DNA of 64,000 nucleotides from IMG/VR virus record IMGVR_UViG_3300019093_001485, positions 916 through 64,915 of that record; one strand, 5' to 3'. The translations under genes were made by a program, and so were the position numbers. The notes under the pieces were generated by a model. The model ran no database searches, had not been told where the DNA came from, and saw nothing but the letters and a program-made list of their open reading frames with translations. The DNA is from a virus. Taxonomy: Duplodnaviria; Caudoviricetes. Shown here in pieces: positions 1-62,334 of this stretch; positions within the stretch are counted from its first letter, which is position 1; each line of letters starts with the position of its first letter.

Positions 1-320
1 TGAAAAAAAATACTGACGTAACTGCAAAATTAACTAATTGGCGCATGTACCCTCCCTTTAAATTTAACGATTTGGTAAATACTAAGTCCAAATTATTTTT
101 TGGCAAGGTACAAGTGCCGGTTTTCGCATGTAACCAACAAATATTTAAAGCAACTGCCCTGCATGTGCAATTGCACCACCCCAACTCGCAGCACTAATCC
201 TGCTTAGCTAGATACCGGTAACGTCCTGAATGAATGGCGCTAGTGAGGTTTGGCCTAAGCGCAAAGCTCCATTCAGCAGAGTTACACGGCTGAACTTGAT
301 GATACTTTGATGTACATTTA

Positions 321-340
321 TACTGAATGCATATACAGTA
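321..340 (+). promoter_or_regulatory. LexA (SOS) box
   Basis: TACTGAATGCATATACAGTA matches CTG-N10-CAG, 8 nt before the umuD ATG at 349. Confidence 0.9.
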
Positions 341-348
341 TAAATATC

Positions 349-774
349 ATGACCGCACCTATCCCCATTTCCGACACCCCTGCCCTGATCACTTTGTTTG
401 GCACAAGCGTGCAAGCAGGTTTCCCCTCGCCTGCTGCTGACTATGCCCAAGGGAAAATCAATCTCAATGAACACCTATTGATCAATGAAAATGCCAGCTT
501 TCTGTTTAGGGTGAGCGGCGAGTCCATGCGGGACATTGGCATCTATGACGGCGACACCTTAATTGTCGATCGCTCAATTGCGCCGGCACACAATCAAATC
601 GTCCTGGCCATCGTCGACGAGGAATTCTGCGTTAAGCGTTTATATAAGCGCGGCCAGGTCATCAAGTTGCTGGCAGAGAACCCTGCCTTTCCTGAAATCG
701 CGTTTAAAGATGGGCAGGAACTGCGGATCTGGGGCGTCGTCACATTTAACTTGCATCGTCTTACCAATGTGTGA
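349..774 (+). CDS. umuD: DNA polymerase V subunit UmuD (S24 peptidase)
   Basis: VQAG/FPSPA cleavage site, GESM catalytic Ser, VKRL catalytic Lys; start moved to ATG 349 because the upstream part overlaps the SOS box. Confidence 0.95.
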   Translation: MTAPIPISDTPALITLFGTSVQAGFPSPAADYAQGKINLNEHLLINENASFLFRVSGESMRDIGIYDGDTLIVDRSIAPAHNQIVLAIVDEEFCVKRLYKRGQVIKLLAENPAFPEIAFKDGQELRIWGVVTFNLHRLTNV

Positions 775-777
775 GGC

Positions 778-2055
778 ATGCCAATGGAAGTACAACAACG
801 CAGCATTGCGCTAATCGACTGCAATAATTTCTATGTTTCCTGCGAAAGACTGTTTCGCCCAGATCTGTTGAACCGGCCTGTAGTCGTACTCAGTAATAAT
901 GATGGGTGTGCCGTGTCACGCAGCCAGGAGGCAAAAGCCCTGGGTATTAAGATGGGCGGGCCTATCTTTGAGGTGGCAGACCTGGTCAAGAAGCACAATA
1001 TCGCGGTTTTCAGCAGCAACTATGCCTTGTACGCAGATTTGAGCAACCGGGTGATGTCAATATTGTCCGAGTATTCCCCGGAGCATGAGATATACAGCAT
1101 TGACGAATCTTTTTTGGACTTGACTGGATTTCACGATATCCCTGATCGCTGCAAACAAATGCGCAACCAGGTGATGACGGATGCTGGGATACCCGTTTGC
1201 GTAGGCGTCGGGCCGTCAAAGACATTGGCCAAGTTAGCAAATTTTGTCGCCAAGCGACACCCGCGCTCTGCTGGTGTATTCAACTTCAATCTGCTGACAG
1301 CGAGCCAAGTGGAAAGCGTGATGGGGAATTTACCTGTTGAAGAGATTTGGGGGATTGGCCGTAAGTTGACTGCTTCGCTCAGCGAATACGGCATCAATAC
1401 AGTACTGCAGCTTCGAGATAGTGACGTGGCCAGCATGCGCAAAAAGTTTGGTGTTGTGATGGAAAAGACCATCAGGGAGCTGCGCGGTGAGGCATGCATC
1501 GAGCTGGACGAGGTGGCACCAGCCAAGAAGCAGATCATCAGTAGCCGAAGCTTTGGCAAGAACGTCACTGTGATTGAAGATATTCAGGACGCCCTCGCCC
1601 ACTTTGTCAGCAATGCTGCCCGCAAGTTGCGAGACCAGGGATCTATTGCGGGGATGTTGCAAGTATTTATCCAGACGAACCGGTTTAGGACTGAGCTGCC
1701 GCAATACAACCCGTGTCTTGCTATCCCTTTGGTGCAGCCGTCATCCAATACGATGACGCTGCAGCGTTACGCCCTTTCAGGGCTGGCAGTCATGTTCAAG
1801 CCTGGTTATCAGTACAAAAAGGCAGGGGTAATCCTGAGTGAGATCTGTCCGGCATCGATGTACCAGGGCGATATGTTTTCTGATACCAAGGAAAAGCCTG
1901 AGCTAATGGACGTGCTTGACCAGGTCAACAGGCGATATGGCAAAGGTACTTTGAAACTCAGCCAGGATGGCAGCAGGCATTCGTGGAAGATGAGGATGGA
2001 AGCCAAGTCACCGTGTTATACGACGGATTGGGATGAGTTTCCTGTTTGCTTTTGA
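778..2055 (+). CDS. umuC: Y-family DNA polymerase V subunit UmuC
   Basis: [30 protein letters not shown] motifs and C-terminal SPCYTTDW tail. Confidence 0.96.
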
Positions 2056-2099
2056 CCGAACAATGTTATTATTTAAAAAACAAAACCATTAAATGAATT

Positions 2100-2486
2100 A
2101 TGAAAATTCAAGCCCTATTATTCACTCTTGCCGGTTCCATTATTCTGACCGGTTGTGGCTCTAACGAACTCAACTTTGTTGGTTCCACAGACAAAGACCA
2201 AAAGTCGACAATCCACATTTCAGACGGAAAAGGAACATTGACCTGGGAGATTCCTGGTGAAAAAGAGCCTACCGTCATACAGATTGAATCAGTGGAAGCG
2301 CTCTATCCAGAATTGCTTGGAAAAATCCTATTCAAAAACGATTACAAAATTAGAATTACAGGGTACGGTTCTGTTCTGTCGCTAAGCCGGGTACCTGGCG
2401 GATATTTCTGTTTTGAGTGCGCATCCATCAGTAAGAATTTGATACAAGTTACTCCCCCTGTTTTGTGGAAGCGCACATCGAAATAA
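2100..2486 (+). CDS. Putative lipoprotein (moron)
   Basis: Signal peptide with lipobox ILTGC; CxxC near C-terminus; AT-rich. Confidence 0.7.
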   Translation: MKIQALLFTLAGSIILTGCGSNELNFVGSTDKDQKSTIHISDGKGTLTWEIPGEKEPTVIQIESVEALYPELLGKILFKNDYKIRITGYGSVLSLSRVPGGYFCFECASISKNLIQVTPPVLWKRTSK

Positions 2487-2498
2487 ATAAAGAAATCC

Positions 2499-2527
2499 TT
2501 GTCTGTTCGTATTTTACGAACTAAGAT
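2499..2527 (+). promoter_or_regulatory. Sigma70 promoter with inverted-repeat operator (putative Aca2 site)
   Basis: TTGTCT, 17 bp, TAAGAT; the spacer is the palindrome GTTCGTA-TTT-TACGAAC (2505-2521). Confidence 0.8.
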
Positions 2528-2577
2528 ATAGTCAATCCGGCAGCAATTGTGCAGACCGGTACTCTAGGAGATTCAAC

Positions 2578-2844
2578 ATGACTACCTTCACCAATTACAC
2601 CATCAACAACAACGGCATCGCTCAAATCGCCAATTTCTTGCGCGAAACACATAAAAATGGCGCTGTCATTGCTGAATCACCAGATATGCTGGGTGCCTGG
2701 GCTACTGACGCGGAGTTTCAATTGGGTGAAGGCAACCCTGCCATGATTGAAGTACGTAGCTTTGATGCAGTGAGCGGGCAGACCACGACATTTACGATCT
2801 CTGACGAAGGGATCGATGCAACTGAAGTGACTGACGAAGAATAA
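2578..2844 (+). CDS. Small acidic protein, candidate anti-CRISPR/anti-defence
   Basis: 88 aa, acidic C-terminus, strong AGGAG RBS, directly upstream of an aca2 homologue. Confidence 0.65.
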   Translation: MTTFTNYTINNNGIAQIANFLRETHKNGAVIAESPDMLGAWATDAEFQLGEGNPAMIEVRSFDAVSGQTTTFTISDEGIDATEVTDEE

Positions 2845-2849
2845 TACAC

Positions 2850-2869
2850 AGCCCCGCAAGGGGCTTTTT
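2850..2869 (+). terminator. Rho-independent terminator between candidate acr and aca2
   Basis: AGCCCC-GCAA-GGGGCT followed by T run. Confidence 0.8.
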
Positions 2870-2882
2870 CATAGGGGATGCC

Positions 2883-3347
2883 ATGAACGGCCCTACTCTT
2901 AAGGCTTTACGAAACCTATTGTTTTTTACAATGGACGAGGCCTCTCATTTAATAGGCAATGTGCAGCTACGCTCTTGGCAGTATTGGGAGGCTGGCCAGC
3001 GGCCAATACCTGCAGACGTGATCGAGAAAATCACCAGTCTGGCGAAGTGGCGCGGCCAGGCTGTGACGGCTGGTGCGCAGGCCATCGAAGGGATGCTGTC
3101 ACAGTTGCCGCCTGATGCTGAGTTTGATCCTATTGGCCTGGTGAGTTATGCGTCGGTGGAAGACTGGATGACGTTACCAGACCGTGAGCCGGTCTTGTGG
3201 AAGCCGCATTGCTCAGTCATTGCGGAAATGTGTGCCTGCCTGCCGGTGCAGGTGGTGATATTTGACGGCCCAGCCTATGCAAAGTGGCTGGCTGGGCGCG
3301 ATGACAATGAGACGATGCGCAGCCACTGGGCTGCGGAATCACATTAA
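2883..3347 (+). CDS. aca2: Aca2/YdiL (DUF1870) HTH regulator
   Basis: LKALRNLLFFTMDEASHLIGNVQLRSWQYWEAGQRPIPADV matches the Aca2 N-terminal HTH pattern (RSWQYWE.G...P.DV). Confidence 0.85.
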   Translation: MNGPTLKALRNLLFFTMDEASHLIGNVQLRSWQYWEAGQRPIPADVIEKITSLAKWRGQAVTAGAQAIEGMLSQLPPDAEFDPIGLVSYASVEDWMTLPDREPVLWKPHCSVIAEMCACLPVQVVIFDGPAYAKWLAGRDDNETMRSHWAAESH

Positions 3348-3571
3348 TTAATGTGGTTTACTACTTCGGCCAGGCCTGTACTATTTTGCAGTGCATGGCA
3401 GATTTGCTTTATTGTAGGGTTTTTACTTTTTTTATAAAACATGAAACAGCGGTGGAATTAGGAGCCAGTGCATTTTTCAATAACGAATATTGATAGCGCC
3501 TTGTTATATTATTGGCTACTATCAGTGGCAGAGTGCTAAGTTAAGCACTTTTAACAATAAGGGGGAAGAAA

Positions 3572-4012
3572 ATGGTGCCGGAACACAAGGTAAAAGAAGC
3601 GTCCGAAAAATTGGTCGCGGCTGTTGGAAAATATCGAGACGGCAAGACAGATGATGATTTTGCACAAAGTGTCGTGCTCGCTGTGGAAACAATTAACCTA
3701 CTAGCAGTCGCTGGCATCGATTCTGCTGAAGTTGCACTATCAAAACTCGCTCCTGCCATTGCTCGCCATATTGAACCACAAGAACATATCATGACACCTG
3801 AAGCCTTCATGGAGTTTTCTAGGCAAACATACGAGGATATCAAAAAACATAACAAGGAACATCCAGGCGAACCATATCAAGGCCACTGCAAAGATGACGC
3901 CTATCAACTTATTAATCATGCTATCGATGATTTTAATAACCCTAAACTTAAATTGTCAGGTGAATTTCCAAAGATATTTTTAGATATTATCAACTCTCCA
4001 TTTGATAAATAA
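3572..4012 (+). CDS. Hypothetical protein (moron, convergent with lysis cassette)
   Basis: 146-aa ORF with purine-rich RBS and AT-rich upstream region. Confidence 0.65.
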   Translation: MVPEHKVKEASEKLVAAVGKYRDGKTDDDFAQSVVLAVETINLLAVAGIDSAEVALSKLAPAIARHIEPQEHIMTPEAFMEFSRQTYEDIKKHNKEHPGEPYQGHCKDDAYQLINHAIDDFNNPKLKLSGEFPKIFLDIINSPFDK

Positions 4013-4026
4013 CAGCTAGTTAAACG

Positions 4027-4281
4027 CTACTTCGGCCAGACCTGCACTACCATCCTATGCTTGGAAGCGCATTCGCCGTAAGCGCGCAGGACTGCGTTTT
4101 GCATCCATAGCTGCCACTGGTCGTAATCTGCGGATTCTGGCGCTGTCAGGGTCTTGCAGGGTTCTGCCAGGCTACTGTCCAGAGGCGGCACTGTTTGCAG
4201 CGTCAACGGCTGCTTTGAGGTTGCGCACCCGTTCATCATCAGGCTTGCAATCAACAGGCAAAGGGCTTTTTGCTTGAGCAT
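4027..4281 (-). CDS. o-spanin (Rz1-like lipoprotein)
   Basis: Overlaps i-spanin in another frame; lipobox LMMNGC, Pro-rich, two further Cys. Confidence 0.8.
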   Translation of the reverse strand: MLKQKALCLLIASLMMNGCATSKQPLTLQTVPPLDSSLAEPCKTLTAPESADYDQWQLWMQNAVLRAYGECASKHRMVVQVWPK

Positions 4282-50656: not shown

Positions 50657-51046
50657 ATGAATGCAGCAGATCAGTTTGAAGCACCAAAACACACGCCGGG
50701 ACCGTGGGAAGCGATTGGCAATTTGGTTCGCTCCCCTATGGTTCACCCGCAGGGTACTGATAGGCCGCGAGGAATCATGCTTGCGGAATGCGCAGATGGA
50801 TACGGCGTCAAGGCAAACAGCGCTGAAGCCGCCGCAAATGCCAGGCTCTTCGCTGCGGCACCTGATTTGCTGGCCGAGTTGGTCATGGCTGGCCAGGTCA
50901 TCAGCGTGCTGCTGAACGAGTTGACTGTCGAGCAAAAGCGCAACTGTGCAGCAAAAATCGACGCATTGGGCATACACGGCGAAGGCATGATCAGGGCAAA
51001 TGAGCGTGATGCAGTCATGAAAAAGGCCACGGGAGCACCAACATGA
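50657..51046 (+). CDS. Conserved phage protein
   Basis: KHTPGPW...ANARLFAAAPDLL family; AGGAG RBS. Confidence 0.85.
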   Translation: MNAADQFEAPKHTPGPWEAIGNLVRSPMVHPQGTDRPRGIMLAECADGYGVKANSAEAAANARLFAAAPDLLAELVMAGQVISVLLNELTVEQKRNCAAKIDALGIHGEGMIRANERDAVMKKATGAPT

Positions 51047-51153
51047 CCCGCACCCGCCCTATTCGCGCTTACCGCCACTGGCGCAGCGCTGGCTTCAGTG
51101 TCCGCAATGCACTTTACCTGACAGTGAAATGGGGTTGCCCAGCATGGTACTGA
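51043..51153 (+). CDS. 36-aa cationic peptide (not in ORF track)
   Basis: MTRTRPIRAYRHWRSAGFSVRNALYLTVKWGCPAWY; GGAG RBS, ATGA coupling. Confidence 0.55.
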   Translation: MTRTRPIRAYRHWRSAGFSVRNALYLTVKWGCPAWY

Positions 51154-51258: not shown

Positions 51259-52233
51259 ATGAGTACAGCAGTCGCAACAAAGACACCAGCAGCAAACTTG
51301 ATGCAGTTTATGGAGAAACATAAGCAGCAAGTCGCCCTTGCCTTGCCAAAGCATATTACTGCTGATCGTATGGTTCGCCTGGCTATGACTTCATTCAGCC
51401 AAAACAAGGCGCTGCAAAACTGCGAAATGAATAGCATTTTTGCTTCAGTCATCATTGCTTCACAGCTCGGTCTTGAGATTGGTGTGGGCGGACAGGGCTA
51501 TCTTGTTCCATACAAGGGCAAATGCACGTTCGTGCCTGGCTGGCAGGGCTTGGTTGATCTGGTATCTCGCGCTGGTCGTGCCACAGTTTGGACTGGCGCG
51601 GTGTATCGCGGCGATAAATTCGATTGGGCACTTGGTGACAATCCATTCGTAAAACATCAACCAGAGGGCGACGCAGACGATTGGCGCGACATCTCGCATG
51701 TGTATGCCATAGGTCGCGTGAATGGCAGCCAATACCCTGTTATCGAAGTCTGGACGATGGATCGCGTTGTTCGCCACCTCAACAAATACAACAAGGTAGG
51801 CACCAGCCACTATGCCCTTACGAACGATGGCGCAAATATGGAGATGTACGCCCGCAAGGTCGCCCTGCTCCAGGTCTTGAAGTACATGCCAAAGTCAATC
51901 GAAGTACAGAAAGCCATGGACGTGGCCCACGCAGTCGATTCCGGCAAAAACTTCACGATGGAAGGCGATATCGTTATTGTTCAGGACGAGCCAGAAGATC
52001 AGGCAGCAGTGCCCCAAAGCGTTGATATGCCGCGCTCACGAAGCGAACAAGCAGCCGCCCAAGCTGACCCAGCCGCGCCACTGACCGCTACGCAAATTGA
52101 CTTCGTTAAGAACAAGATGGAGCTGGATGCCCTTGGCAGTGCTGACCTGTTCCGAAAGTTCGGCAAGAAATTAGAAGACTTCACTCAAGCTGAATTTGAA
52201 ACTGTTCTGGCCTGGGTAAAGAACCCTGACTAA
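51259..52233 (+). CDS. recT: RecT-family single-strand annealing protein
   Basis: ALPKHITADRMVRLA, SQLGLE, GQGYLVPYK, MYARKVAL..LKYMPKSIE. Confidence 0.93.
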   Translation: MSTAVATKTPAANLMQFMEKHKQQVALALPKHITADRMVRLAMTSFSQNKALQNCEMNSIFASVIIASQLGLEIGVGGQGYLVPYKGKCTFVPGWQGLVDLVSRAGRATVWTGAVYRGDKFDWALGDNPFVKHQPEGDADDWRDISHVYAIGRVNGSQYPVIEVWTMDRVVRHLNKYNKVGTSHYALTNDGANMEMYARKVALLQVLKYMPKSIEVQKAMDVAHAVDSGKNFTMEGDIVIVQDEPEDQAAVPQSVDMPRSRSEQAAAQADPAAPLTATQIDFVKNKMELDALGSADLFRKFGKKLEDFTQAEFETVLAWVKNPD

Positions 52234-52235
52234 TC

Positions 52236-52814
52236 ATGCTGACGTTCGATGAATCAACACACACATATAGATGGCACGGCGTTGTTGAGCCTGGTGTGAC
52301 CTCAATACTTTCGCCTCTAATCGACTATTCGATGGTCAAGCCAGAAGTCCTTGAACGCGGGCAAAAGTTGGGGACTGCTGTTCATCGAATGACAGAACTG
52401 TATGACCTTGACGACCTCGACGAATCATCTTTGTCGCCGGTGATGGTTAACTACCTTGAAGGCTGGAAGCGATTCAAGGAAGACACAGGATTCGTTCCGG
52501 CGACGATCGAGCATCGAATGTATCACCCAAAGCACCACTACTGTGGAACGTCCGACAGGACAGGCGTAATCAAGAAGCACAAGGCTGTTGTTGACATAAA
52601 GAAGATGCTCACTCTGGGGCCTGTTATCGGCATACAGCTTGCCGCTTACCAGGCAACGCACAACCTGGAGGGCTCGGGAATCACCCACCGGTACGCCCTC
52701 GGGCTCCGGCCAGACGGTACATACAGGTTAGAGCCATTTATTAACCCAGGTGACTTTGCAGTGTTTTTGTCACTTCTCACTATCAAGAACTGGAAAGCGC
52801 AACATGGAAACTGA
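52236..52814 (+). CDS. PD-(D/E)XK exonuclease partner of RecT
   Basis: FDESTHTY, PGVTSIL, GTAVH, YCGTSDR, VVDIK, QLAAY. Confidence 0.85.
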   Translation: MLTFDESTHTYRWHGVVEPGVTSILSPLIDYSMVKPEVLERGQKLGTAVHRMTELYDLDDLDESSLSPVMVNYLEGWKRFKEDTGFVPATIEHRMYHPKHHYCGTSDRTGVIKKHKAVVDIKKMLTLGPVIGIQLAAYQATHNLEGSGITHRYALGLRPDGTYRLEPFINPGDFAVFLSLLTIKNWKAQHGN

Positions 52815-53721
52815 AATCGAAACTACGCACATCACGATCGCAATACCAGCCAAAAATCCGGCCTTGGCCAGACGTGCCAGCGCTTTCGTCAAGATTGCAG
52901 AAAATTATGCGGTAACCAGTCCGCAAATGTTTGAACTTGCCGCCGAAGATCTGAAAAGCGTGAAGGCATTGCAAAAGCGCCTGGAAGATCAGCGCACCAG
53001 CGAAGTTGGGCCACTGAATGCAAAGGTCAAGGAAATCAACGACGAGTACCGAGCACCAAAAGACTGGTTATCCAATGCTGAGTCGATTCTTAAAGAGAAG
53101 TTGCTGACTTACACAACCGAGCAAGAGCGCATCGCTGCGGAAGAGCGCCGAAAAGCTGAGACGGCAGCGCGCATTGAACGCCAGCGTTTGGAAGCTGAAG
53201 CCAGGGAAAAACAAGCATTGGCGGATCGCCAAGCGGCACAGATTGCTGCTGCTGAAGCAGCACAGGCACGCGCCCAGGCAGAACAAGCAGATGCTCAGGC
53301 CACAGCAAACGCTGCCGCACAAGCAGGTGATCATGCTGCAGCACGCGAAGCCTTCGCCGCTGTTGACAAGGCTGAAACTGAACGCCTCGAAGCTGAGCAA
53401 ATCGCTGTCCAGGCACGTCATGTACAAGAGCAAGCACAGCAGGATGCTTTTGCGACAGAGATGACCGCCCTTGTTATGACCGCTCCAGTTGTCGCGTCAA
53501 AGGCAAAAGTCGCTGGCATTTCGACCTCAAAGAACTGGAAAGCTCGCGTTACTGACAAGGCCGCGCTGCTCAAGTACATCGCAGACCACCCTGAAATGCA
53601 CGATTGGGTTGATATCAGAATGACCGGTCTGAATGGCATGGCGCGGGCAATGAAGCAGACCATGAATATTCCGGGCGCAGAAGCATACCCAGATATTTCT
53701 GTCTCGGCCAGAGCCGCCTAA
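52804..53721 (+). CDS. Coiled-coil phage protein
   Basis: Long Ala/Glu/Gln-rich helices; IPGAEAY tail typical of recombination-module proteins. Confidence 0.75.
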   Translation: METEIETTHITIAIPAKNPALARRASAFVKIAENYAVTSPQMFELAAEDLKSVKALQKRLEDQRTSEVGPLNAKVKEINDEYRAPKDWLSNAESILKEKLLTYTTEQERIAAEERRKAETAARIERQRLEAEAREKQALADRQAAQIAAAEAAQARAQAEQADAQATANAAAQAGDHAAAREAFAAVDKAETERLEAEQIAVQARHVQEQAQQDAFATEMTALVMTAPVVASKAKVAGISTSKNWKARVTDKAALLKYIADHPEMHDWVDIRMTGLNGMARAMKQTMNIPGAEAYPDISVSARAA

Positions 53722-53754
53722 CCACCAACAAACTCAACAACTATTGGAGCTGTC

Positions 53755-54024
53755 ATGAACACAGAAACTCAGGAATTGCCGGAAATTACTCTGTCCCCAG
53801 TTGTTTCATCTCAACTGGCCGCGATTGGTCACTGCCCTGCTACCAATCGCCTGGCCATTCAGTTCAAAAGCTGGCGTGCTGATCAGCCTGGCAGCGTATA
53901 TCACTACAGCGATTTTGACGCCGCTGCATTCGAGGCCTTCCGCACTGCTGAATCGCTTGGCTCGTATTTCAAGAAGTTCATCAAGCCATTCGATGACCGT
54001 TTTCCATTCGTAAAGGTTTCCTGA
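53755..54024 (+). CDS. KTSC domain protein
   Basis: PVVSSQLAAIGH...LAIQF...YHY...AESLGSYF...IK. Confidence 0.88.
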   Translation: MNTETQELPEITLSPVVSSQLAAIGHCPATNRLAIQFKSWRADQPGSVYHYSDFDAAAFEAFRTAESLGSYFKKFIKPFDDRFPFVKVS

Positions 54025-54026
54025 TC

Positions 54027-54719
54027 ATGCAAGAACTTCAAAACGTAGTTGCCACGTCCATGGCAAAAATTATCGAGTCTGGCGTCATTGAACAGACTAT
54101 CGAGAAAAAATTGGTTGAAACAGTGAGCAGCATCATCACCAGCGAGTTGCGTGATTACTCTGAATTCGGCAAGGGCTTGCAGCAGCATGTAAAGGCAGCT
54201 CTGCAGGTCGATTTTTCAAGTCTTGGCATACCTGGATACAACGACTTCATATTGAAGATCATTCGCCAGCAGGTTACTGCACATGCTGACCTTGCAATTG
54301 CCAGCCAAATTAGCGGCCAATTGGAGCAGCTTTTGAAGCCAGCGCCAGCAACGATAAATATCTCTGAAATTGTAGCGAATTTCATCAAGTACAACACTCC
54401 GGATGGTTGCGAGTGTGATGGACCAGATGAAATCACGCTCATCATCGATGAAGAGTCATATGGCAGCCGCTGGGTATCGTTAGATAAAGAACCTGGAAAA
54501 ACACTGTACCGCTGCGACTATCGCTTTGGAGTAAGTCTGTCTGACGGCCACGTCTTTGGTATGAATCTCGACGGTAAGGACATTGAAAAACGGCTGTTCG
54601 TGGGGAATTTCTACAGCTTTGAGCGTGACTTATTTCAGATGCATGCATCTGGTACCAAAGTAATCATCGACAAAGAAGCTGTAGATATTGATACCTACTA
54701 CCCAGGGCGAGGTGACTGA
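54027..54719 (+). CDS. Conserved phage hypothetical protein
   Basis: 230-aa ORF in operon. Confidence 0.75.
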   Translation: MQELQNVVATSMAKIIESGVIEQTIEKKLVETVSSIITSELRDYSEFGKGLQQHVKAALQVDFSSLGIPGYNDFILKIIRQQVTAHADLAIASQISGQLEQLLKPAPATINISEIVANFIKYNTPDGCECDGPDEITLIIDEESYGSRWVSLDKEPGKTLYRCDYRFGVSLSDGHVFGMNLDGKDIEKRLFVGNFYSFERDLFQMHASGTKVIIDKEAVDIDTYYPGRGD

Positions 54720-54721
54720 AC

Positions 54722-54943
54722 ATGAACGCCCTGCAGCGCAACAAGAACAGAGCGACAGCCCGGCTGCTTGCCGAAGAAGTATATGAAGCAAATCTGCCAA
54801 ACGGACTGACTTTGCGCGGGAATGTTCTGTATTTCGAGTGTCCGCGCTGTGGAAACGATAGTGAGTGGTATGGATCAGCCGAAGACTTCATGCACCCTGA
54901 TGCGGTCAAAGCTTGTGGCGGAACGCAATGGTGCATTCCATGA
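54722..54943 (+). CDS. Small Zn-ribbon protein
   Basis: CPRC...CGGTQWC; GAGG RBS. Confidence 0.6.
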   Translation: MNALQRNKNRATARLLAEEVYEANLPNGLTLRGNVLYFECPRCGNDSEWYGSAEDFMHPDAVKACGGTQWCIP

Positions 54944-55113
54944 ACGGCCCGCAAGTCGTTTGCTGCTCATGTGGCAAAGAGTGCGGGATTTTCAGCCCAT
55001 TCTGTAAGGCATGCCAAAAGCTCACCCAAGGTGATGCCCTCCCAGAGTCCAAGGCAACACAACCGACATCGGAAGAACTTGAAAAAGCTGGTCAAACAAG
55101 ACTTATCCCATAA
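54940..55113 (+). CDS. Small Zn-finger protein
   Basis: CCSC...CKAC; ATGA coupling at 54940. Confidence 0.5.
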   Translation: MNGPQVVCCSCGKECGIFSPFCKACQKLTQGDALPESKATQPTSEELEKAGQTRLIP

Positions 55114-55122
55114 GGAATTGAT

Positions 55123-56028
55123 ATGTGGTTTAAAAATATACAGATATTCAGACTGACGCAGCCATGGGCGATAACTTCCGACGAGTTGCAAGCTCAGTTG
55201 GCCAAGATCCAGTTTGCGCCGGCGGCATCCAATGAAATGCAAAGCCAGGGTTGGGCATCGCCCCGCGAGAATGATTTGCTGGTCCACGCGGTCAACAAGC
55301 AATTCCTGATCTCGTTGGCGACTGAAAAAAAGCTTCTGCCCTTCTCCGTCATCAATCAGGCGACCAAGGCCCGTGCCTTGGAGGTCGAAGAAGAGCAAGG
55401 CTTCGCACCTGGTCGCAAGACGGTCAAGGAGCTGAAAGAGCGCATGACGGAAGAACTGCTGCCGCGCGCGTTCGCAGTCAAAACCACCACTAAGGTCTGG
55501 ATTGATACCGTGAATTGCTGGCTGGTCATTGATGCATCCAGCCCTTCTGCTGCAGATGAAGTAATCAAGCTCCTGCTGAAATGCTGTGACAAGTTGCCAC
55601 TGGAAGGCCTGCGCACAGCTATCTCGCCACAATCGGCAATGACAAGCTGGCTGGCAGGAAATGAAGCGCCCATGGGCTTCACGATTGACCAGGACACAGA
55701 GCTGAAGTCTTCAACAGAAGACAAGGCCACCGTGCGCTATACCCGCTACACCCTGGAACCAGACGACACATTGAAGCACATCAGTGCGGGCAAGCAGTGC
55801 ACAAAGATGGCACTGACTTGGGACGACAAGATTAGCTTTGTTCTGACCGATACCCTGGCGATCAAGCGCATCAAGCCGCTGGACGTGCTGGAAGAAGGCA
55901 AGGACAAGGGCAGCAACCAGGACGAGCGCTTTGATGCTGACTTTGTGCTGATGACTGCAGAGCTGGCAAAGATGCTTGATGACGTGGTGTTTGCGCTGGG
56001 TGGGGAAGCATCATGCCCTGCTACATAG
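55123..56028 (+). CDS. rdgC: Recombination-associated protein RdgC
   Basis: MWFKN.QIFRL, EKKLLP, LLPRAF, GKQCTKMALTW, RFDADFVLMTAEL. Confidence 0.95.
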   Translation: MWFKNIQIFRLTQPWAITSDELQAQLAKIQFAPAASNEMQSQGWASPRENDLLVHAVNKQFLISLATEKKLLPFSVINQATKARALEVEEEQGFAPGRKTVKELKERMTEELLPRAFAVKTTTKVWIDTVNCWLVIDASSPSAADEVIKLLLKCCDKLPLEGLRTAISPQSAMTSWLAGNEAPMGFTIDQDTELKSSTEDKATVRYTRYTLEPDDTLKHISAGKQCTKMALTWDDKISFVLTDTLAIKRIKPLDVLEEGKDKGSNQDERFDADFVLMTAELAKMLDDVVFALGGEASCPAT

Positions 56029-56300
56029 AGAATTTCCCAGACGGCGGCACATTCTTCTTATGCGGCGACTTCGGCCCACATTGCGCCGCCGAGAAATGTG
56101 CTGCCAGCACTTATTTCTTGTGTGACTTTCCTGTGGGAGATGAAAAAACTTGCGATTTGCCACTCTGCGCAAGTCATGCCTACGAAGTCGCACCAGATAT
56201 CCATTACTGCCCAGGGCATTTGATTTTATGGAAAGAATTTAGGGAAAAGGGTGGCGTTGAACAGGAACTGAAGAATGTAGTTCCCTTTGAAGGTAAATAG
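56013..56300 (+). CDS. Cys/His-rich phage protein
   Basis: LCDFPV...TCDLPLC..H...HYCPGH. Confidence 0.7.
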   Translation: MPCYIENFPDGGTFFLCGDFGPHCAAEKCAASTYFLCDFPVGDEKTCDLPLCASHAYEVAPDIHYCPGHLILWKEFREKGGVEQELKNVVPFEGK

Positions 56301-56305
56301 CAAGA

Positions 56306-56458
56306 ATGATCATAAGCAAAGAGCGCATCAAGCGCGAATACGACCACCTTGCCCAGCATGAGCCGCCAGACCAGGCAGCGCAATGGACAGCCGAAAAGCT
56401 CGGCATCCCCGTGGCAACAGTAAAACAAACAATTCATGAACAGGAGCAACAAGCATGA
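56306..56458 (+). CDS. 50-aa hypothetical protein (not in ORF track)
   Basis: MIISKERIKREY...TAEKLGIPVATVKQ; ATGA coupling to next gene. Confidence 0.5.
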   Translation: MIISKERIKREYDHLAQHEPPDQAAQWTAEKLGIPVATVKQTIHEQEQQA

Positions 56459-56760
56459 GAGCAATTACATTCCGCCAAAGCAACGTAGAAGCGCCTTTAC
56501 CAAAACCTTGTTTTCACCTGGCGTCTGAATTTGCAACACCAAACGCGCAAAACAACCAGATCAACAAGGTTATCAAGGCTGCAGGCGTGAAAAACGATGC
56601 AGGTCTGGCTCGGCTGCTGGAAGTCGCACCGCCAGTAATTAGCAAGATCCGCCACAACCGTTTGCCGGTAGGCGCAACGTTGGCTATAGCGATCACAGAA
56701 GAAACTGACCTGTCTATTACTGATATCAAAGCCATTTTGGAAGGCCAGGTGGCTGCATGA
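56455..56760 (+). CDS. Small HTH protein
   Basis: KNDAGLARLLEVAPPVISKIRHNRLPVGA, a motif I recognise from Oxalobacteraceae chromosomal HTH proteins. Confidence 0.75.
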   Translation: MRAITFRQSNVEAPLPKPCFHLASEFATPNAQNNQINKVIKAAGVKNDAGLARLLEVAPPVISKIRHNRLPVGATLAIAITEETDLSITDIKAILEGQVAA

Positions 56761-58559
56761 TCATCGAGAAAGATATCAGGCATTTCCACTTTTGCTGTGG
56801 CCTCGGGGGCGGCAAGAAGGGATTCAACAAAGCCAAGCCGCGCGTGGGCAACATGGTTGGCAAGTTGCGCTGCATCGGAGGCGTGGACGTTGACCCTGCA
56901 GCCATTCGCGATTTTGACAAAATGGGCGATGGCAGACCAGGCACGGTTATGGACCTGTTCACCCGTGGCCAGTATACCGCCTTCCATAGCAAGCAACCTC
57001 CTGGCGAATGGCAAGAAGTCACGCCTGCAGATATACGCCGCGCGGCTGGCAATGAAAGCCCGAACATTGTTTTCATTTCTAGCCCATGCAAAGGTGCGTC
57101 CGGTCTGTTGAGCGAAAAACTCAGCCAAACGGCAAAGTACCAGGCATTGAACGAACTGACGCTGCGCTGCATCTGGCTCATGGCAGAGGCCTGGCAGGAT
57201 GACCCAGTCGAGCTGATTGTATTCGAGAACGTACCGCGTCTGGCTACCCGTGGCCGCCACCTGCTCGACCAGATCAACCAGTTGCTTAACCGCTACGGCT
57301 ATGCAGTTGCCGAGACAACCCACGACTGCGGCGAACTCGGTGGCCTGGCTCAATCACGCAAGCGATTCTTACTGGTGGCCCGCCACATGGAAAAAGTACC
57401 GCCGTTCTTGTATGAACCAGAGAAAAAGCGCCTAGCTGCTGTCGGTGACGTTCTTGGCCGCATGCCCATGCCAGGTGATCTGACTGGCGGGCCAATGCAC
57501 CGCATCCCTCGACTGCAGTGGAAAACATGGGTGCGCCTGGCATTTGTTGAAGCTGGCTCAGACTGGCGCAGCTTGAACAAGTTGGCCGTGAACAATGGGC
57601 ACCTGAGCGATTACCTGATTGTGCCTGAGTATCGCTCTGGATACCTTGGCGTACAAAACTGGTCTGATACTTCGGGCACGGTCTGCGGGAAATCAAATGC
57701 GACAAATGGCGCGTTCTCAATTGCTGACCCTCGGATGGTGACCACTGCCGAATACAGCCAGTACGGTGTGCTGCCATGGACAGACTCAACAGGCGTTATC
57801 AGCGCTCAATCCGCCCCTGGTGGAGGCAAGTACTCGGTTGCAGACCCGCGCATGCTGGATAGCAGCCATCACAACAACTGTTTCAGAGTTGTTGCCTGGG
57901 ACGGCCATGCTGGCACCGTCACTTCTGGCCATGGCCCAAGCAGTGGCGGCGGATGCGTAGCAGACCCGCGTCGTGCTGGTCCTTCATTTGGCAAATACGC
58001 CGTGACCAAATTTGACGAGCCTGCCGGTACCGTGATCGCAGGCAGCACGACTGGCCAAGGTGCATTTGCAGTGGCCGACCCACGCACAAGCATGAATCGC
58101 AAGTCAGGCGATGCGTACCTGACGGGCGGTCATTACGGTGTAGTGCCATGGGATGCTGCCTGCGGAGCTGTTAGCGCATCGGCTGGCCTGGACAATGGCC
58201 GCTGGTCGGTCGCCGATCCTCGTATCGCTACCCTGCCCGCCATGGATGAAAAGACGATTGCCATCATTCAGTCTTTGGATGGCACTTGGCACCGCCCATT
58301 TACAACGCTGGAACTGGCCGCACTGCAAAGCCTGGTCGAGCCAGAGGAATACTTGGAGCTGGACGGCCTATCTGATAGTGCTTGGCGCGAGCGTATCGGG
58401 AATGCGGTGCCACCTGCAGCAGCAGAAGCAATCGCCGAAGTCATGGGCACAACTCTACTACTGGCCTGGTCAGGAGAAACGTTCGTACTGTCGGCAATGC
58501 CTATCTGGGTGAAACCGGTGGCGGTTGCTCTGTCGGTTGCGCAAGGGGAAGCAGCGTAA
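56757..58559 (+). CDS. C5 cytosine DNA methyltransferase with repeat-expanded variable region
   Basis: FCCGLGGG (I), SPCKG (IV), FENVP (VI), QSRKR (VIII), IGNAVPP (X). Confidence 0.92.
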   Translation: MIIEKDIRHFHFCCGLGGGKKGFNKAKPRVGNMVGKLRCIGGVDVDPAAIRDFDKMGDGRPGTVMDLFTRGQYTAFHSKQPPGEWQEVTPADIRRAAGNESPNIVFISSPCKGASGLLSEKLSQTAKYQALNELTLRCIWLMAEAWQDDPVELIVFENVPRLATRGRHLLDQINQLLNRYGYAVAETTHDCGELGGLAQSRKRFLLVARHMEKVPPFLYEPEKKRLAAVGDVLGRMPMPGDLTGGPMHRIPRLQWKTWVRLAFVEAGSDWRSLNKLAVNNGHLSDYLIVPEYRSGYLGVQNWSDTSGTVCGKSNATNGAFSIADPRMVTTAEYSQYGVLPWTDSTGVISAQSAPGGGKYSVADPRMLDSSHHNNCFRVVAWDGHAGTVTSGHGPSSGGGCVADPRRAGPSFGKYAVTKFDEPAGTVIAGSTTGQGAFAVADPRTSMNRKSGDAYLTGGHYGVVPWDAACGAVSASAGLDNGRWSVADPRIATLPAMDEKTIAIIQSLDGTWHRPFTTLELAALQSLVEPEEYLELDGLSDSAWRERIGNAVPPAAAEAIAEVMGTTLLLAWSGETFVLSAMPIWVKPVAVALSVAQGEAA

Positions 58560-59008
58560 TGTCACACAACAAGACACCATGGAACCCATCAAAGACGGCA
58601 ACTGCCAGGGTGAGGAATCCCCTGCCCGCGCCTATTGTGTGCCCGTTCTGCATGCATTGCTCAGTTCAAATTGTTCATCACGACTATGTGTATGGTCGGG
58701 TGTACGGCGAATGGCCATGGGTCTATATGTGCAAGGCTTGCTGGGCATACGTGGGCATGCATCCATTCACCAACATCCCTCTGGGCACTCTGGCGGATGC
58801 CCAGCTGCGCAAAGCCAGGAAGGAGTGCAAACAACCGTTTGAAGTACTGTTTCAGTCGAAGAAGATGACTCGCGACCAGGCTTATGCAGGTCTGGCTGCA
58901 CATATGCGCCTAACCTCAGAAACATGCCATTTCGGCTGGTTCGACATCGGGCAGTGTGAAAAAGCGAGGGCCTGGGCAGTCAGTGCATTGCGCGGGGTAA
59001 CTGTATGA
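58559..59008 (+). CDS. DUF3268-like zinc-finger protein
   Basis: CPFC...CKACWAYVGMHP.T.IPLGTLAD..LR...CHFGWFD. Confidence 0.85.
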   Translation: MSHNKTPWNPSKTATARVRNPLPAPIVCPFCMHCSVQIVHHDYVYGRVYGEWPWVYMCKACWAYVGMHPFTNIPLGTLADAQLRKARKECKQPFEVLFQSKKMTRDQAYAGLAAHMRLTSETCHFGWFDIGQCEKARAWAVSALRGVTV

Positions 59009-59010
59009 AA

Positions 59011-59256
59011 TTATTGCCCTCGATCATGAAGCAAGTTGATTGCCTCTTTAGTGGCAATTTCAACAGCGCGTCTGATCTCGCCGATTTCAGAGGATGCTGC
59101 AACGGAACCTTTAACGGTGCCTTTGACCTCGTCGCCAAGCTTGATCTCAGCTTCCCATGTGACTTGTCTGCGGCTCTCTTCCAGGGTGCCCTTGTACGCA
59201 TACATCACTTCAGGGGCGGAGTCGGGTCTGCAATAACCATCGTAAGAGTGAATCAT
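59011..59256 (-). CDS. Antisense hypothetical protein inside the early-left operon
   Basis: 81 aa from ATG 59256 with globular composition; fully overlapped by sense ORF 59005..59262. Confidence 0.45.
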   Translation of the reverse strand: MIHSYDGYCRPDSAPEVMYAYKGTLEESRRQVTWEAEIKLGDEVKGTVKGSVAASSEIGEIRRAVEIATKEAINLLHDRGQ

Positions 59257-59926
59257 GTCTAATTTACCAATAAAAGAAAAGCCAATTTTGTTTTCGGGGA
59301 TCATGGTACGCGCTCTGCTGGATGGGAGCAAGACGCAGACGCGGCGACTAGTCACACCGCAACCAAGCTTAGTTCACCTTGGATTGCCCATTAAATTTAC
59401 ACCTCAGGACGAAAAATTAGGCAGGGTCGGAATGGTGGTTCCTTGCGCTTACGGTGCAGAAGGCGAGCAGATCTGGGTGCGTGAAACCTTCTTTGCGTAT
59501 GGCCGCTGGGAGACTCGTTATAGCGAGAAAAAGAAGCGCGATGAATGGCATTTCATTGATATGACCCTAGAGCGTGGTTGCACATATCAATATGCAACAG
59601 ACAATCCATATGTGCTACTGGCAAATAATCGCGTTCCTGGCTGGTACAAGCGCCCCGCTATCTTCATGCCACGTGCTGTTAGTCGCCTGCAGCTCGAAAT
59701 CATCAAAGTGCGCGTAGAGCGCCTGAACGAAATTAGCGAAGACGATGCAAAGGCTGAAGGTGCGCCAGGTTACGAAGAAAGTATAGACCCTTCCCCACCT
59801 GATGAACACTGCGAGTGGTCATATCAAGCGTCGTTCCGCAGGCTTTGGGAATCTATCAACGGCGCTGCCAGTTGGGCAAAGAACCCATGGGTTTGGGTAA
59901 TTGAATTTAAGAGGGTTACGACATGA
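59255..59926 (+). CDS. Conserved phage protein (ASCH/PUA-like)
   Basis: KPILFSG.MVRALLDG.KTQTRR, WVRETF, IFMPR, NPWVWVIEF. Confidence 0.85.
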   Translation: MSNLPIKEKPILFSGIMVRALLDGSKTQTRRLVTPQPSLVHLGLPIKFTPQDEKLGRVGMVVPCAYGAEGEQIWVRETFFAYGRWETRYSEKKKRDEWHFIDMTLERGCTYQYATDNPYVLLANNRVPGWYKRPAIFMPRAVSRLQLEIIKVRVERLNEISEDDAKAEGAPGYEESIDPSPPDEHCEWSYQASFRRLWESINGAASWAKNPWVWVIEFKRVTT

Positions 59927-60120
59927 GCATCATTCGTGAGAACTTAATGACACAGCGCGGCTATACCCCGTACTGCGGAAATGGGCATTGTGCAGGACTA
60001 ATGCCACGCACAGTGTTTAACGGCAACCAATTTGAGTGCAGGGCTTGCGGCTGGATATCTGGTTTTGAAGTTGATTTCATTGCTGAATATAAAGCAAAGT
60101 GGAAAGGCGATCAATCATGA
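59923..60120 (+). CDS. Small Zn-ribbon protein
   Basis: YTPYCG..C...FECRACGW; coupled at both ends. Confidence 0.65.
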   Translation: MSIIRENLMTQRGYTPYCGNGHCAGLMPRTVFNGNQFECRACGWISGFEVDFIAEYKAKWKGDQS

Positions 60121-61115
60121 GTGAAAACACCAAAATTGAATGGTGCGACCACACATTCAACCCCTGGGAAGGTTGCCAGAAGATCGGCCCAGGCTGCGAC
60201 CATTGCTACGCAGAGACGCGCAATGCGCGGTTCTCTGGTGGTCAAGCGATCAACTGGGGACCAGGCGCACCACGTCGCCGCACATCTGCCGCCAACTGGA
60301 AATTGCCATTGAAGTGGAATCGTCAGTTTGAACTCAAGCAAAACGCATGGAGGAAATTCGTAGCCTCGAATCCTGGCATGAGCGATCAACAACTGCTAGA
60401 GGCAGGCTTCGTGATGCCGAAACGCCCTCGCGTGTTTTGCGCAAGCCTGGCAGACGTGTTTGACAATGCAGTCTCTGACGACTGGCGTGCGGATCTGTTC
60501 GACTTGATCGCTGCCACCCCTAATCTTGACTGGCTGCTGCTTACCAAGCGCATCGGCAATGTTGAGGCAATGGTGCCATATGAATGGACATGCCCGAAAC
60601 GCGGCTGGCCAGTAAACGTTTGGCTCGGTGCCACGATCGTCAACCAGGCGGAAGCAAACCGCGACATTCCTAAATTGCTGCGTGTGCCAGCGGCCAAACG
60701 CTTTCTCAGCATGGAACCTTTGCTTGGACTGGTGCAAATTGATGTGATCGAACTTGGAGGTGTATCTGAGATATATCCTCTTGTGGGCACAACACGATGT
60801 GAAGATTTTGACGGCAATCCGATACCAGACATCCCCGCGCTTGATTGGGTAATTGTTGGTGGCGAGTCGGGCCCCGGCGCACGACCGAAGAGCCCGGAAT
60901 GGGCCCGAAGCCTGCGCGACCAGTGCCAGACGGCCAGTGTGCCGTTCCTGTTTAAACAATGGGGCGAATGGCTCCCGATGCTGGGTCAAGCCGAAGGCGT
61001 GCCAGTACGAGCAAAGACCACAACTCCAGACGGCTGGGTTATGGGGCACGCTGGCAAGAAAGCCGCTGGCCGCCTGCTTGACGGCGTCGTGCACAACGGA
61101 TTTACGGAGATTTGA
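60117..61115 (+). CDS. Phage Gp37/Gp68 (DUF5131) protein
   Basis: TKIEWCDHTFNPWEGC..GCDHCYA, LLTKR, FLSMEPLL, WVIVGGESG, FKQWG. Confidence 0.93.
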   Translation: MSENTKIEWCDHTFNPWEGCQKIGPGCDHCYAETRNARFSGGQAINWGPGAPRRRTSAANWKLPLKWNRQFELKQNAWRKFVASNPGMSDQQLLEAGFVMPKRPRVFCASLADVFDNAVSDDWRADLFDLIAATPNLDWLLLTKRIGNVEAMVPYEWTCPKRGWPVNVWLGATIVNQAEANRDIPKLLRVPAAKRFLSMEPLLGLVQIDVIELGGVSEIYPLVGTTRCEDFDGNPIPDIPALDWVIVGGESGPGARPKSPEWARSLRDQCQTASVPFLFKQWGEWLPMLGQAEGVPVRAKTTTPDGWVMGHAGKKAAGRLLDGVVHNGFTEI

Positions 61116-61116
61116 C

Positions 61117-61983
61117 ATGGCACACAACACAAAGGAAATGCTGCGCCTGATCAAGGCGAACCCTGGAATCAGGCAAGTTGAAATTGCAGATAAGGTCGAT
61201 TGCGAAATAGAAGCTGTCGAATGGGCGCTCAAAGTGCAAATTGAAATGGGCGACGTTGTGAGAAGCCAAGTTACTGGCCCCAATGGTGTCACACAGTCTG
61301 CTTACAAATTGGCCGCGAATTTCGAGGTGCTAGAAGATGCCGCGCCGATAATGTCAGTTGCACCGAAACCTGCACCAGAAAGCAAGGCGGCACCAGCCCC
61401 TCTCCAAACCAAGCCTAGCAAATCCAAGCCGGAATTGGCAATTGACTATTTGGCAAAGGTTGGCTTTGCCGATGATGTCGCCTTGCGTGTTGTCATGGGC
61501 CTGCACATTGGTGGCAATGTCAAAGCTTATCTAGCAACCGCGCTGGATAAACGCAAAGTCATTCGTGCCAAAATAAACGGCGTTATGGGCTACGCAATTG
61601 GCGATGGCACGCCGACCAAGGTAGCCGAAAAGCAGCCGGTGATTCAGGAGCATAAAACAATGTCCATACCAGTATTTGCGGCGTCAACGCCTGCAATCAC
61701 TACACCAGCGCAATCCATTGCAGTAGAACCAAACCACTCCCCTGCACCAATCGTCGCCACGCCGAATAAATACCAGCGGCAAGTTAAAGGTGCAACGGTG
61801 GACGTGTACGATATTCTCAAGGCATGGGATGTGCGTAATCCGGCCGTTCAGCACGCAATCAAGAAACTACTGCAGCCTGGTCAGCGCGGCCACAAAGACA
61901 TGTTGCAAGACTTGCGCGAAGCAGGTCAGTCGGTAGCACGTGCGCTGGAGCTCGAAAGTGTTCCGCAAGATGGCAACGGATAA
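61117..61983 (+). CDS. wHTH protein fused to a conserved phage C-terminal domain
   Basis: N-terminal IKANPGIRQVEIA HTH; Pro/Ala linkers; DVYDILKAW...QHAIKKLL.PG.RG.KD. Confidence 0.7.
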   Translation: MAHNTKEMLRLIKANPGIRQVEIADKVDCEIEAVEWALKVQIEMGDVVRSQVTGPNGVTQSAYKLAANFEVLEDAAPIMSVAPKPAPESKAAPAPLQTKPSKSKPELAIDYLAKVGFADDVALRVVMGLHIGGNVKAYLATALDKRKVIRAKINGVMGYAIGDGTPTKVAEKQPVIQEHKTMSIPVFAASTPAITTPAQSIAVEPNHSPAPIVATPNKYQRQVKGATVDVYDILKAWDVRNPAVQHAIKKLLQPGQRGHKDMLQDLREAGQSVARALELESVPQDGNG

Positions 61984-61995
61984 GAAAGAATAATT

Positions 61996-62334
61996 ATGCC
62001 AAAAACTAACGATGAGTCAGGGTTCAGTCACAAGTGGCCGAAAGGGAAAACCAAGACCACTTACATGTGCATGAGCATCGCCGGTTTCATACGAAACAAC
62101 AAGTTCCCAAAAGGCTGGGACTGCTTTGAAAAGCCCGATGGCTCCCCGATGAGTCCTGGCCAGGCATTCACGTTGTTGAGCGCACACCAAGCCAAGGGCC
62201 ACAAAGTAATCTCGATCAGTCATGAGTGCGACAACCCTTGCAAGCACGCAGACCAAGGATGCACAGGATTCGACTACGAAAACGGATGCCCTGGATTCTT
62301 CAAGGATGTTCAAGAGGGAAAGGATGCAACATGA
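61996..62334 (+). CDS. Hypothetical phage protein
   Basis: Cys-rich C-terminus GFDYENGCPG; coupled. Confidence 0.65.
   Translation: MPKTNDESGFSHKWPKGKTKTTYMCMSIAGFIRNNKFPKGWDCFEKPDGSPMSPGQAFTLLSAHQAKGHKVISISHECDNPCKHADQGCTGFDYENGCPGFFKDVQEGKDAT

Follow-up and report, generated by a model that had tools for sequence, protein, structure and literature searches.

What does a small acidic protein do when its gene lies directly in front of an aca2 repressor gene in a provirus? The question is raised by positions 2499–3347 of the window, by which we mean the whole 64 kb stretch of DNA that was analysed (64,000 nucleotides (nt) of the IMG/VR provirus record IMGVR_UViG_3300019093_001485; the host genome is not part of this record). 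An earlier note on this DNA had proposed an acr-aca2 operon with an unrecognised candidate anti-CRISPR protein (Acr; CRISPR stands for short palindromic repeats that are clustered and regularly interspaced). This interpretation is supported, because the 88-amino-acid (aa) product of the first open reading frame (ORF), here ORF88, matched no known Acr in the searches made, and its homologues are repeatedly linked to aca-type genes. The segment is best explained, with equal weight for and against, as an anti-defence operon autoregulated by Aca2 and lying at a prophage's left edge. ORF88 is its anti-CRISPR candidate, new relative to Acrs with solved structures, and the case for such an activity is evenly balanced. 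All the features that the earlier note had listed are present at the positions it gave. The segment reads as follows, in window coordinates:

2480–2498: A/T-rich stretch upstream of the TTGTCT hexamer
2499–2504, plus strand: −35-like hexamer TTGTCT, read directly, 4/6 match to TTGACA
2505–2521, no strand: putative Aca2 operator GTTCGTA-TTT-TACGAAC, a perfect inverted repeat (7-3-7) taking up the whole 17-nt spacer
2522–2527, plus strand: −10-like hexamer TAAGAT, read directly, 4/6 match to TATAAT
2537–2559, plus strand: predicted hairpin of the 5′ untranslated region (UTR), with a CCGG..CCGG outer stem, a GCA/UGC inner stem and an AUUG loop
2566–2570, plus strand: ribosome-binding site AGGAG preceding ORF88
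2578–2844, plus strand: ORF88, acidic protein of 88 aa from an unnamed family; candidate for an anti-CRISPR or other anti-defence role
2850–2870, plus strand: intrinsic-terminator-like hairpin AGCCCC-GCAA-GGGGCT (2850–2865) and T run, between ORF88 and aca2
2883–3347, plus strand: aca2, 154-aa Aca2/YdiL-type helix-turn-helix (HTH) repressor, long form with a conserved C-terminal tail
3337–3358, no strand: palindrome with 11-nt arms spanning the aca2 stop codon, from a repeat search

The hexamers TTGTCT and TAAGAT are 17 nt apart and agree with the consensus at 8 of 12 positions. The spacer between them consists wholly of the inverted repeat, exactly as had been noticed. The promoter had also been called strong; its hexamers are present, and its strength is not borne out, as the site at 2499–2527 scores 8/12 and was not called by a promoter scan that needs 9/12. 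The terminator reported after ORF88 was called by the terminator scan as a hairpin with a T run; it folds at −13.6 kcal/mol, and 16 of 200 shuffled sequences fold equally well. Only this lineage has the hairpin: the ORF88 homologue and aca2 overlap or abut in four others, the overlap being found in L004, L035/36 and L044-46.

The second gene had been read as Aca2/DUF1870, and the match bears this out. Its product aligns to PF08965 (Aca2/YdiL-like) over residues 1–118 with 68.9 bits (cut-off 23.8, E 5.6e-19), and PF08965 was the only Pfam family that it matched at E≤1. In a phmmer search, the solved Aca2 chains 7ezy, 8w35, 7vjo and 7b5j aligned to residues 3–63 with E values of 1e-12 to 5e-10, the best solved relative being 7ezy (E 1.1e-12), and these alignments contain the motif RSWQYWE.G. 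In an alignment of Aca2 proteins (A5), recognition-helix residues R30, Y34, W35, E36 and G38 are invariant. Judged by its sequence, the 154-aa protein is Aca2. The Aca2 proteins of ORF88-linked loci are of a long form, 153–160 aa (window 2883–3347, L004:6270–6743, L005:6295–6756, L036:3246–3725 and L044:3243–3719), and their C-terminal tail, Y..WL.GR.DNE..R..WA, is conserved.

Perfect repeats with 7-nt arms are not rare: the window holds 50 with loops of 0–6 nt, five of them with a 3-nt loop, and the operator pattern with ≤3 mismatches is expected 1.24 times by chance. The window repeat stands out beyond chance because of its position and its conservation across Aca2-linked lineages. Aca2 lies directly 3′ of an ORF88 homologue in L004, L005, L035, L036, L044, L045 and L046, which together with the window represent five distinct lineages. 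In all five, a symmetric (G/T)TTC-N8/9-GAA(C/A) repeat is found between the hexamers, 69–73 nt before the start codon:

Window: GTTCGTATTTTACGAAC
L004: GTTCATATTTTATGAAC
L005: GTTCTCATTTAAGAAC
L044-46: GTTCCGAAATAGGAAC
L035/36: TTTCCGAAAACGGAAA

The arms of these repeats covary (GTTCGTA/TACGAAC, GTTCATA/TATGAAC, GTTCT/AGAAC, ATGTTCC/GGAACAT and ATTTCCG/CGGAAAT), and such joint change of both arms is as expected for the operator of a dimer. More alike Aca2 recognition helices go with more alike operators (A5). L035/36 is the only lineage with TTTC in place of GTTC, and also the only one whose Aca2 lacks an Arg at positions 39/40; a link between the two in these sequences is suggestive only. According to PMC8633003, the ZF40 Aca2 dimer specifically recognises the half-site GTTC, and Arg39 contacts the G. 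The window operator carries this GTTC half-site, with its TTCG cores in a TTCG-N7-CGAA spacing; in published acr-aca2 promoters, these cores are spaced by N6 or N8 (PMC6765145). We consider it highly probable that the operon is autoregulated through repression by Aca2. Regardless of the function of ORF88, the locus extends the Aca2 operator rule to long-form Aca2: a GTTC half-site inside the spacer, arms that change together, and changes that follow the recognition helix. No second copy of the operator was found in the window, and thus no co-regulated second operon.

These observations are consistent with the following course of events. On entry of the element, the σ70-type promoter would drive ORF88, and read-through of the hairpin at 2850–2865 would let the same transcript yield Aca2 as well. 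Accumulated Aca2 dimer would then bind the GTTC..GAAC repeat in the promoter spacer and shut the operon down. ORF88 would be the payload, and the likely mode of its action is direct binding by a small acidic protein.

The anatomy of the operon is of a known kind, that of an acr-aca2 operon. As in the acrIF8-aca2 operon of ZF40, a small gene is followed by aca2. The ZF40 operon likewise has a σ70-type promoter with 17-nt spacing and an overlapping inverted repeat with GTTC/TTCG half-sites (PMC6765145, PMC8633003), and a structured 5′ UTR before the first gene (PMC13551039). The window differs from ZF40 in that its first gene is unrelated to any solved Acr, it shows one repeat that fills the spacer exactly (N7 between the cores, against N6 and N8 in ZF40), its Aca2 is long (154 aa with a conserved tail, against 116 aa), and a terminator-like hairpin parts the two genes. 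AcrIIC1, AcrIIC4 and AcrIIC5 were each found as a small ORF directly upstream of aca2 on mobile elements of Proteobacteria, and AcrIIC4, like ORF88, is 88 aa long (PMC6282205). AcrIIC5 is described as an acidic mimic of double-stranded DNA in PMC9976890, and ORF88 is acidic too. A link to type II-C is also shared, as the host of one ORF88 homologue has a type II-C system with spacers against the prophage that carries it (see below). The predicted fold of ORF88 is mixed, and no Acr chain of the PDB came up in its sequence searches (at E up to 10) or among the Foldseek and VIA rows.

Ribbon-helix-helix (RHH) proteins are reported to replace HTH Acas, and many unannotated IMG/VR genes to be under predicted Aca2 control (PMC13551039). 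ORF88 homologues resemble the Aca14 (RHH) operons of that kind in having interchangeable small regulators, among them a 62-aa RHH-like protein in L003, L017 and L021; the two differ in that the RHH fold of the 62-aa protein is not established. The ORF88 family may already be among the unannotated Aca2-regulated clusters of PMC13551039, and we found no paper that names it in literature searches, which were not made by sequence. The long Aca2 proteins of L036 and L044 match not only PF08965 but also, over nearly their full length, DUF4447, the family of SO3848-like proteins; SO3848 has extra C-terminal helices (PMC8434428). In contrast to ydiL and so3848, the window aca2 lies in a mobile element, behind a small acidic gene.

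ORF88 was confirmed as the 88-aa acidic ORF that had been described (2578–2844): it contains 15 Asp and Glu against 3 Lys and Arg residues, with a net charge of −12 and a pI of about 4.05. Searches among 1.84 billion sequences gave 423 family representatives at E≤0.001, and 24 clusters at 90% identity were found. In the 24-sequence family alignment (A1), the median net charge is −10, a loop EFQLxEGN is invariant, and the tail is acidic. An AlphaFold2 (AF2) model has one strand, three helices and three strands, with a predicted local distance difference test score (pLDDT) of 90.1. ORF88 is thus a real, conserved protein.

The statement that it does not resemble known Acrs withstood every search made. 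No family matched ORF88 in Pfam and NCBIfam, and the best PHROGs match had an E of 0.32. Against 177,635 distinct PDB sequences, phmmer and a profile of the 24 sequences returned 1 and 8 chains, respectively, at E up to 10, with no Acr among them. Foldseek of the model against the PDB gave 0 matches at E≤0.001. VIA, run over 48,161 chains, gave a best Z of 3.7, none at Z≥5 and no Acr among its rows. The ESM Atlas held no usable match by features and none by structure with a template modelling (TM) score of 0.5 or more, and a cluster look-up returned entries called 'hypothetical protein' or without a name. Four unnamed viral proteins in BFVD share the predicted fold (E≤0.001, TM by query 0.69–0.76); they show the fold in other viral proteins but say nothing on function. 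In some proteins of 150–320 aa (P0046, P0064, P0094, P0101, P0138 and others), the ORF88 domain forms the N- or C-terminal part, and the remainder is acidic and belongs to no known family. In ten of these longer proteins, no Pfam or NCBIfam family scored above its cut-off, the best weak match being EXLDI (E 0.014, in P0138).

To see where the family lives, we examined 58 loci (4 from species genomes, 7 from IMG/VR, 2 annotated phage or plasmid records, and 45 from metagenomes). Six had less than 150 nt of downstream sequence, which left 52 usable for a count of downstream genes. Homologues were expected to be linked to aca genes, and they are: Aca2 directly follows the homologue in 7 of the 52 (the window not counted), and different small regulators are found at other loci. 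Short HTH proteins are encoded directly after the homologue in L010, L012, L018, L055 and L056, and further downstream in L006, L017 and L026, with Pfam matches (E 7e-5 to 3e-4) that all stay below curated cut-offs. The conserved 62-aa protein lies downstream in L003, L017, L021 and partly L019. It looks RHH-like by eye; no Pfam or PHROG family matched it and the AF2 monomer has two helices at a pLDDT of 62, so an RHH fold was not accepted. At several loci, the gene directly downstream encodes a small, often acidic unannotated protein. Ten small genes sharing an operon with homologues matched no Pfam family, and of a further ten searched against PHROGs, eight gave nothing and two gave weak matches to families of unknown function.

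Phages, prophages and plasmids all carry homologues, which come from IMG/VR contigs, from one isolated phage and from plasmids, a conjugative Citrobacter plasmid among them. In the window and L005, the family lies beside lysis genes, the two endolysins being 56% identical; in L036 it adjoins a serine recombinase, and in G003 integrase genes. In Acidovorax phage Alfacinha1, gp21–gp22 (L012:3926–4467) comprise a distant homologue with 29% identity and, after it, an annotated HTH regulator, and the pair sits between tail genes of this P2-like phage, a classical slot for accessory genes. Mobile elements thus carry the family in accessory slots. The promoter and leader are homologous in many loci, and the palindrome lying within or next to the promoter varies with the downstream regulator. 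Whatever ORF88 does, several unrelated repressors can be paired with the same payload gene and leader.

An unannotated protein family of about 81 aa, starting M(T/G)NHPNRGWR, recurs after homologues (L009:6252–6500, L013:5298–5540, L022:3294–3536, L024:582–824 and L026:3149–3391), in one case on the conjugative Citrobacter plasmid, adjoining transposons and an ampC gene.

A search for self-targeting spacers in the host had been suggested as a check. Since the window record comes without a host genome, the test was run on homologue-bearing genomes. Cas1 was found in two of the four such genomes, G001 and G003; none was seen in G002 and G004, and both of these assemblies are incomplete. Within the order of G003, a homologue is present in one of 401 genomes, G003 itself, which is too rare for co-occurrence statistics. 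G003 is a single-contig, metagenome-assembled chromosome. Its homologue, 53% identical to ORF88, lies 0.4 kb from xis-int in a 36-kb prophage (L062-L064, chromosome positions about 26.8–62.9 kb) bounded by perfect 50-bp direct repeats at tRNA-His. At L061:6571–11865, the chromosome carries a cas9 ORF of 1181 aa (HNH_4, RuvC_III and Cas9_RuvC), cas1, cas2, and then the genome's single array of four 36-nt repeats and three spacers, with an anti-repeat upstream of cas9. The locus is of type II-C.

Two of the three spacers match the prophage of their own genome: spacer 1 at 30/30 positions and spacer 3 at 26/29–30, with its mismatches outside the 10 nt next to a shared flank. Spacer 2 has no match anywhere in the G003 genome. 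Both protospacers have the flank TTTGTT.AT. on the same side, and in the opposite orientation this would be a 3′ protospacer adjacent motif (PAM) of the N4-AACAAA type; we infer the orientation from the likeness of the G003 repeat to what we take to be Neisseria-type repeats. A perfect, PAM-flanked self-target beside an intact cas9 classically indicates that the prophage encodes an anti-CRISPR. None of five other small ORFs from the early region of the G003 prophage matched a solved Acr. With a complete chromosome, defined prophage ends, three spacers and a shared PAM-like flank, G003 is a compact natural test case.

The G003 homologue (as a 42-row alignment) was also submitted to complex prediction with residues 270–1181 of its own Cas9. 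The score was 0.44 (0.43, 0.46 and 0.44 in the runs), and the tool rates scores of this range as wrong more often than right; none of three controls scored above 0.00. The runs shared at least 68% of contacts, and the pLDDT of the partner was at least 73. Of 80 solved complexes, 58 reach the pass mark, as do 2 of 110 mismatched pairs; with scores ≤0.60, only 7 of those 80 do so, along with both of the passing mismatches. The predicted complex thus lends weak support to binding of the homologue to Cas9.

If ORF88 is an anti-CRISPR, its target would rather probably be type II-C, and Nme-like type II-C Cas9 is the most likely candidate. Tentatively, the family may be a new, widespread inhibitor of Nme-like type II-C Cas9 with a fold that has no solved relatives, encoded in a promoter–leader–gene cassette with interchangeable repressors (Aca2, short HTH or RHH-like), each with its own matching operator. 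Were ORF88 to inhibit Cas9, the anti-CRISPRs active on the compact Neisseria-type Cas9 enzymes used in genome editing would gain a new structural class, and an unusually widespread one (423 sequence clusters).

Several points weigh against an anti-CRISPR operon, besides the missing promoter call and the range of the complex score given above. Nothing connects the window copy of ORF88 with a particular CRISPR type. An RHH-like gene follows the homologue in G003, and no Aca2 was found in the prophage, which holds further small unidentified ORFs beyond the five compared; the self-targeting case is also weakened by the metagenome assembly. G001 has a similar cas9 locus and a homologue, and none of its five readable spacers matches its own genome. 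Self-targeting can be tolerated for reasons other than an Acr, as PMC7708048 reports. More than half of the genes that Aca1 or Aca2 is predicted to control lack an assigned function (PMC13551039). Three further points against it, the breadth of the family, the frequent lack of a downstream Aca2 and the occurrence of Aca2-like regulators outside acr loci, also bear on the alternatives.

The strongest of these is that ORF88 is an Aca2-controlled anti-defence protein directed at a target other than CRISPR, such as restriction-modification or another nucleic-acid-binding defence; we regard it as unlikely, the least so among the alternatives. ORF88 would then be, perhaps, an acidic DNA mimic, an idea that bulk charge alone suggests (−12, and −10 as the family median). 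For an Acr, the family is broad and well conserved, with its 423 representatives and a member in a phage contig of 33% guanine-cytosine content (L011), and its spread over phages and plasmids fits a conserved target better than most narrow Acr families do. Aca-regulated operons hold other anti-defence genes as well (PMC13551039), and the ORF downstream in L046 resembles an adenine methyltransferase, by eye only. Foldseek and VIA gave no fold match to any solved structure, those of anti-restriction and further anti-defence proteins included, which speaks against such a protein with inconclusive weight. What favours an anti-CRISPR over it is the self-targeted G003 prophage, which a non-CRISPR target leaves unexplained, and the fact that the aca2-linked small ORFs of known function cited here (PMC6282205) are Acrs.

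More doubtful again is a reading of ORF88 as an accessory (moron) protein that plays no part in anti-defence; it would merely share the autoregulated cassette and could modulate the physiology of the host or the life cycle of the element itself. Aca2/YdiL-like regulators do occur in contexts unrelated to acr genes (PMC8434428), no Aca2 lies directly downstream in 45 of the 52 usable loci, the adjoining small genes are all unannotated, and the domain fusions yield no functional clue. A moron would, however, not lead one to expect a strongly acidic small protein as the first gene behind an operator-bearing promoter, nor a downstream regulator that is repeatedly swapped while the leader is kept; the accessory slots at the ends of mobile elements and the self-targeting in G003 point the other way. 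A toxin-antitoxin-like or other self-contained module made up of ORF88 and Aca2, as a two-gene operon with an autoregulating HTH protein in second place might suggest, is very improbable, as homologues have at least four other kinds of downstream gene or none, are also fused to unrelated acidic regions, and ORF88 itself is acidic with no match to a toxin family.

The leader that links the loci was studied separately. An arrangement of TCATGG, a hairpin and a ribosome-binding site is common to window 2528–2577, L003, L004, L005, L006, L017, L019, L035/36 and L044-46. A covariance model of this leader (R1) recovers it in 13 loci or copies; at L021:8–67 it precedes a different first gene, the ORF88 homologue being the third gene there. 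Binding of Aca2 to 5′-UTR hairpins has been published (PMC13551039). Similar hairpins are present in related leaders; the window hairpin (2537–2559) folds no better than shuffled sequences (z −0.20). Over 10 distinct leaders, 66% of the cells pair, a share that 38 of 500 shuffles attain, and covariation does not exceed that of controls. As the pair counts do not beat the controls, the claim of an RNA motif was dropped. Nothing near a gathering score was obtained with Rfam on 2400–3000.

A weak R1 match (22.4 bits, E 0.038) at window 51008–51048, just before the RecT gene, is probably due to chance. A second leader type, …CCGCGCCTCGGG..ACAGGGGCAGGAG…, is found about 60 nt before the start codon in L009, L010, L013, L020, L022, L024, L026, L031 and L033 and appears to pair across the ribosome-binding site. 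At these loci, the promoter palindromes are locus-specific: ACGCGCAATGCGCGT in L010, L026 and L031, and CTTAATT…AATTAAG in L013.

The surroundings of the operon are those of a provirus, with lysozyme, RecT and integrase genes. The operon putatively marks its left edge, the exact left border not being settled. No attachment-site (att) repeat was found for the window prophage, whose record ends at the integrase, and no Cas1 was found in this virus record. When 24 kb of the prophage were compared with isolated phages by megablast, a single 83-nt match resulted. Near-identical DNA is present in sequencing runs of lake-water metagenomes and, in part, of coded isolates. Single metatranscriptome contigs are 90–95% alike and show no transcript ends, giving no basis for judging expression.

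Directly left of the operon, window 307–2486 encodes umuD (Peptidase_S24), umuC (IMS family) and a 128-aa lipoprotein-like ORF. These genes are in line with the operon in two coded isolates and could be either host genes or cargo of the element. In contigs of the coded isolates, umuC, the lipoprotein gene, ORF88 and aca2 are in line at about 96–97% identity up to a divergence at 3334. Related DNA from the coded isolates and a metagenome variant diverges at 3334 and 3363, at the palindrome of the aca2 stop codon (3337–3358), and 3334–3363 could mark a border of the prophage or of a recombination event.

A 146-aa ORF with no family match (3572–4012) separates aca2 from the lysis genes. In a lake-metagenome variant, 31 other nt replace 3399–4097, which marks a variable slot. 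To the right of the 146-aa ORF follow spanin, lysozyme and tail genes, with the integrase at the far end. Window 51259–64000 encodes RecT, RdgC, a 600-aa C-5 cytosine methylase-like protein, a DUF5131 protein and the integrase, and the methylase-like protein may be a second counter-defence gene.

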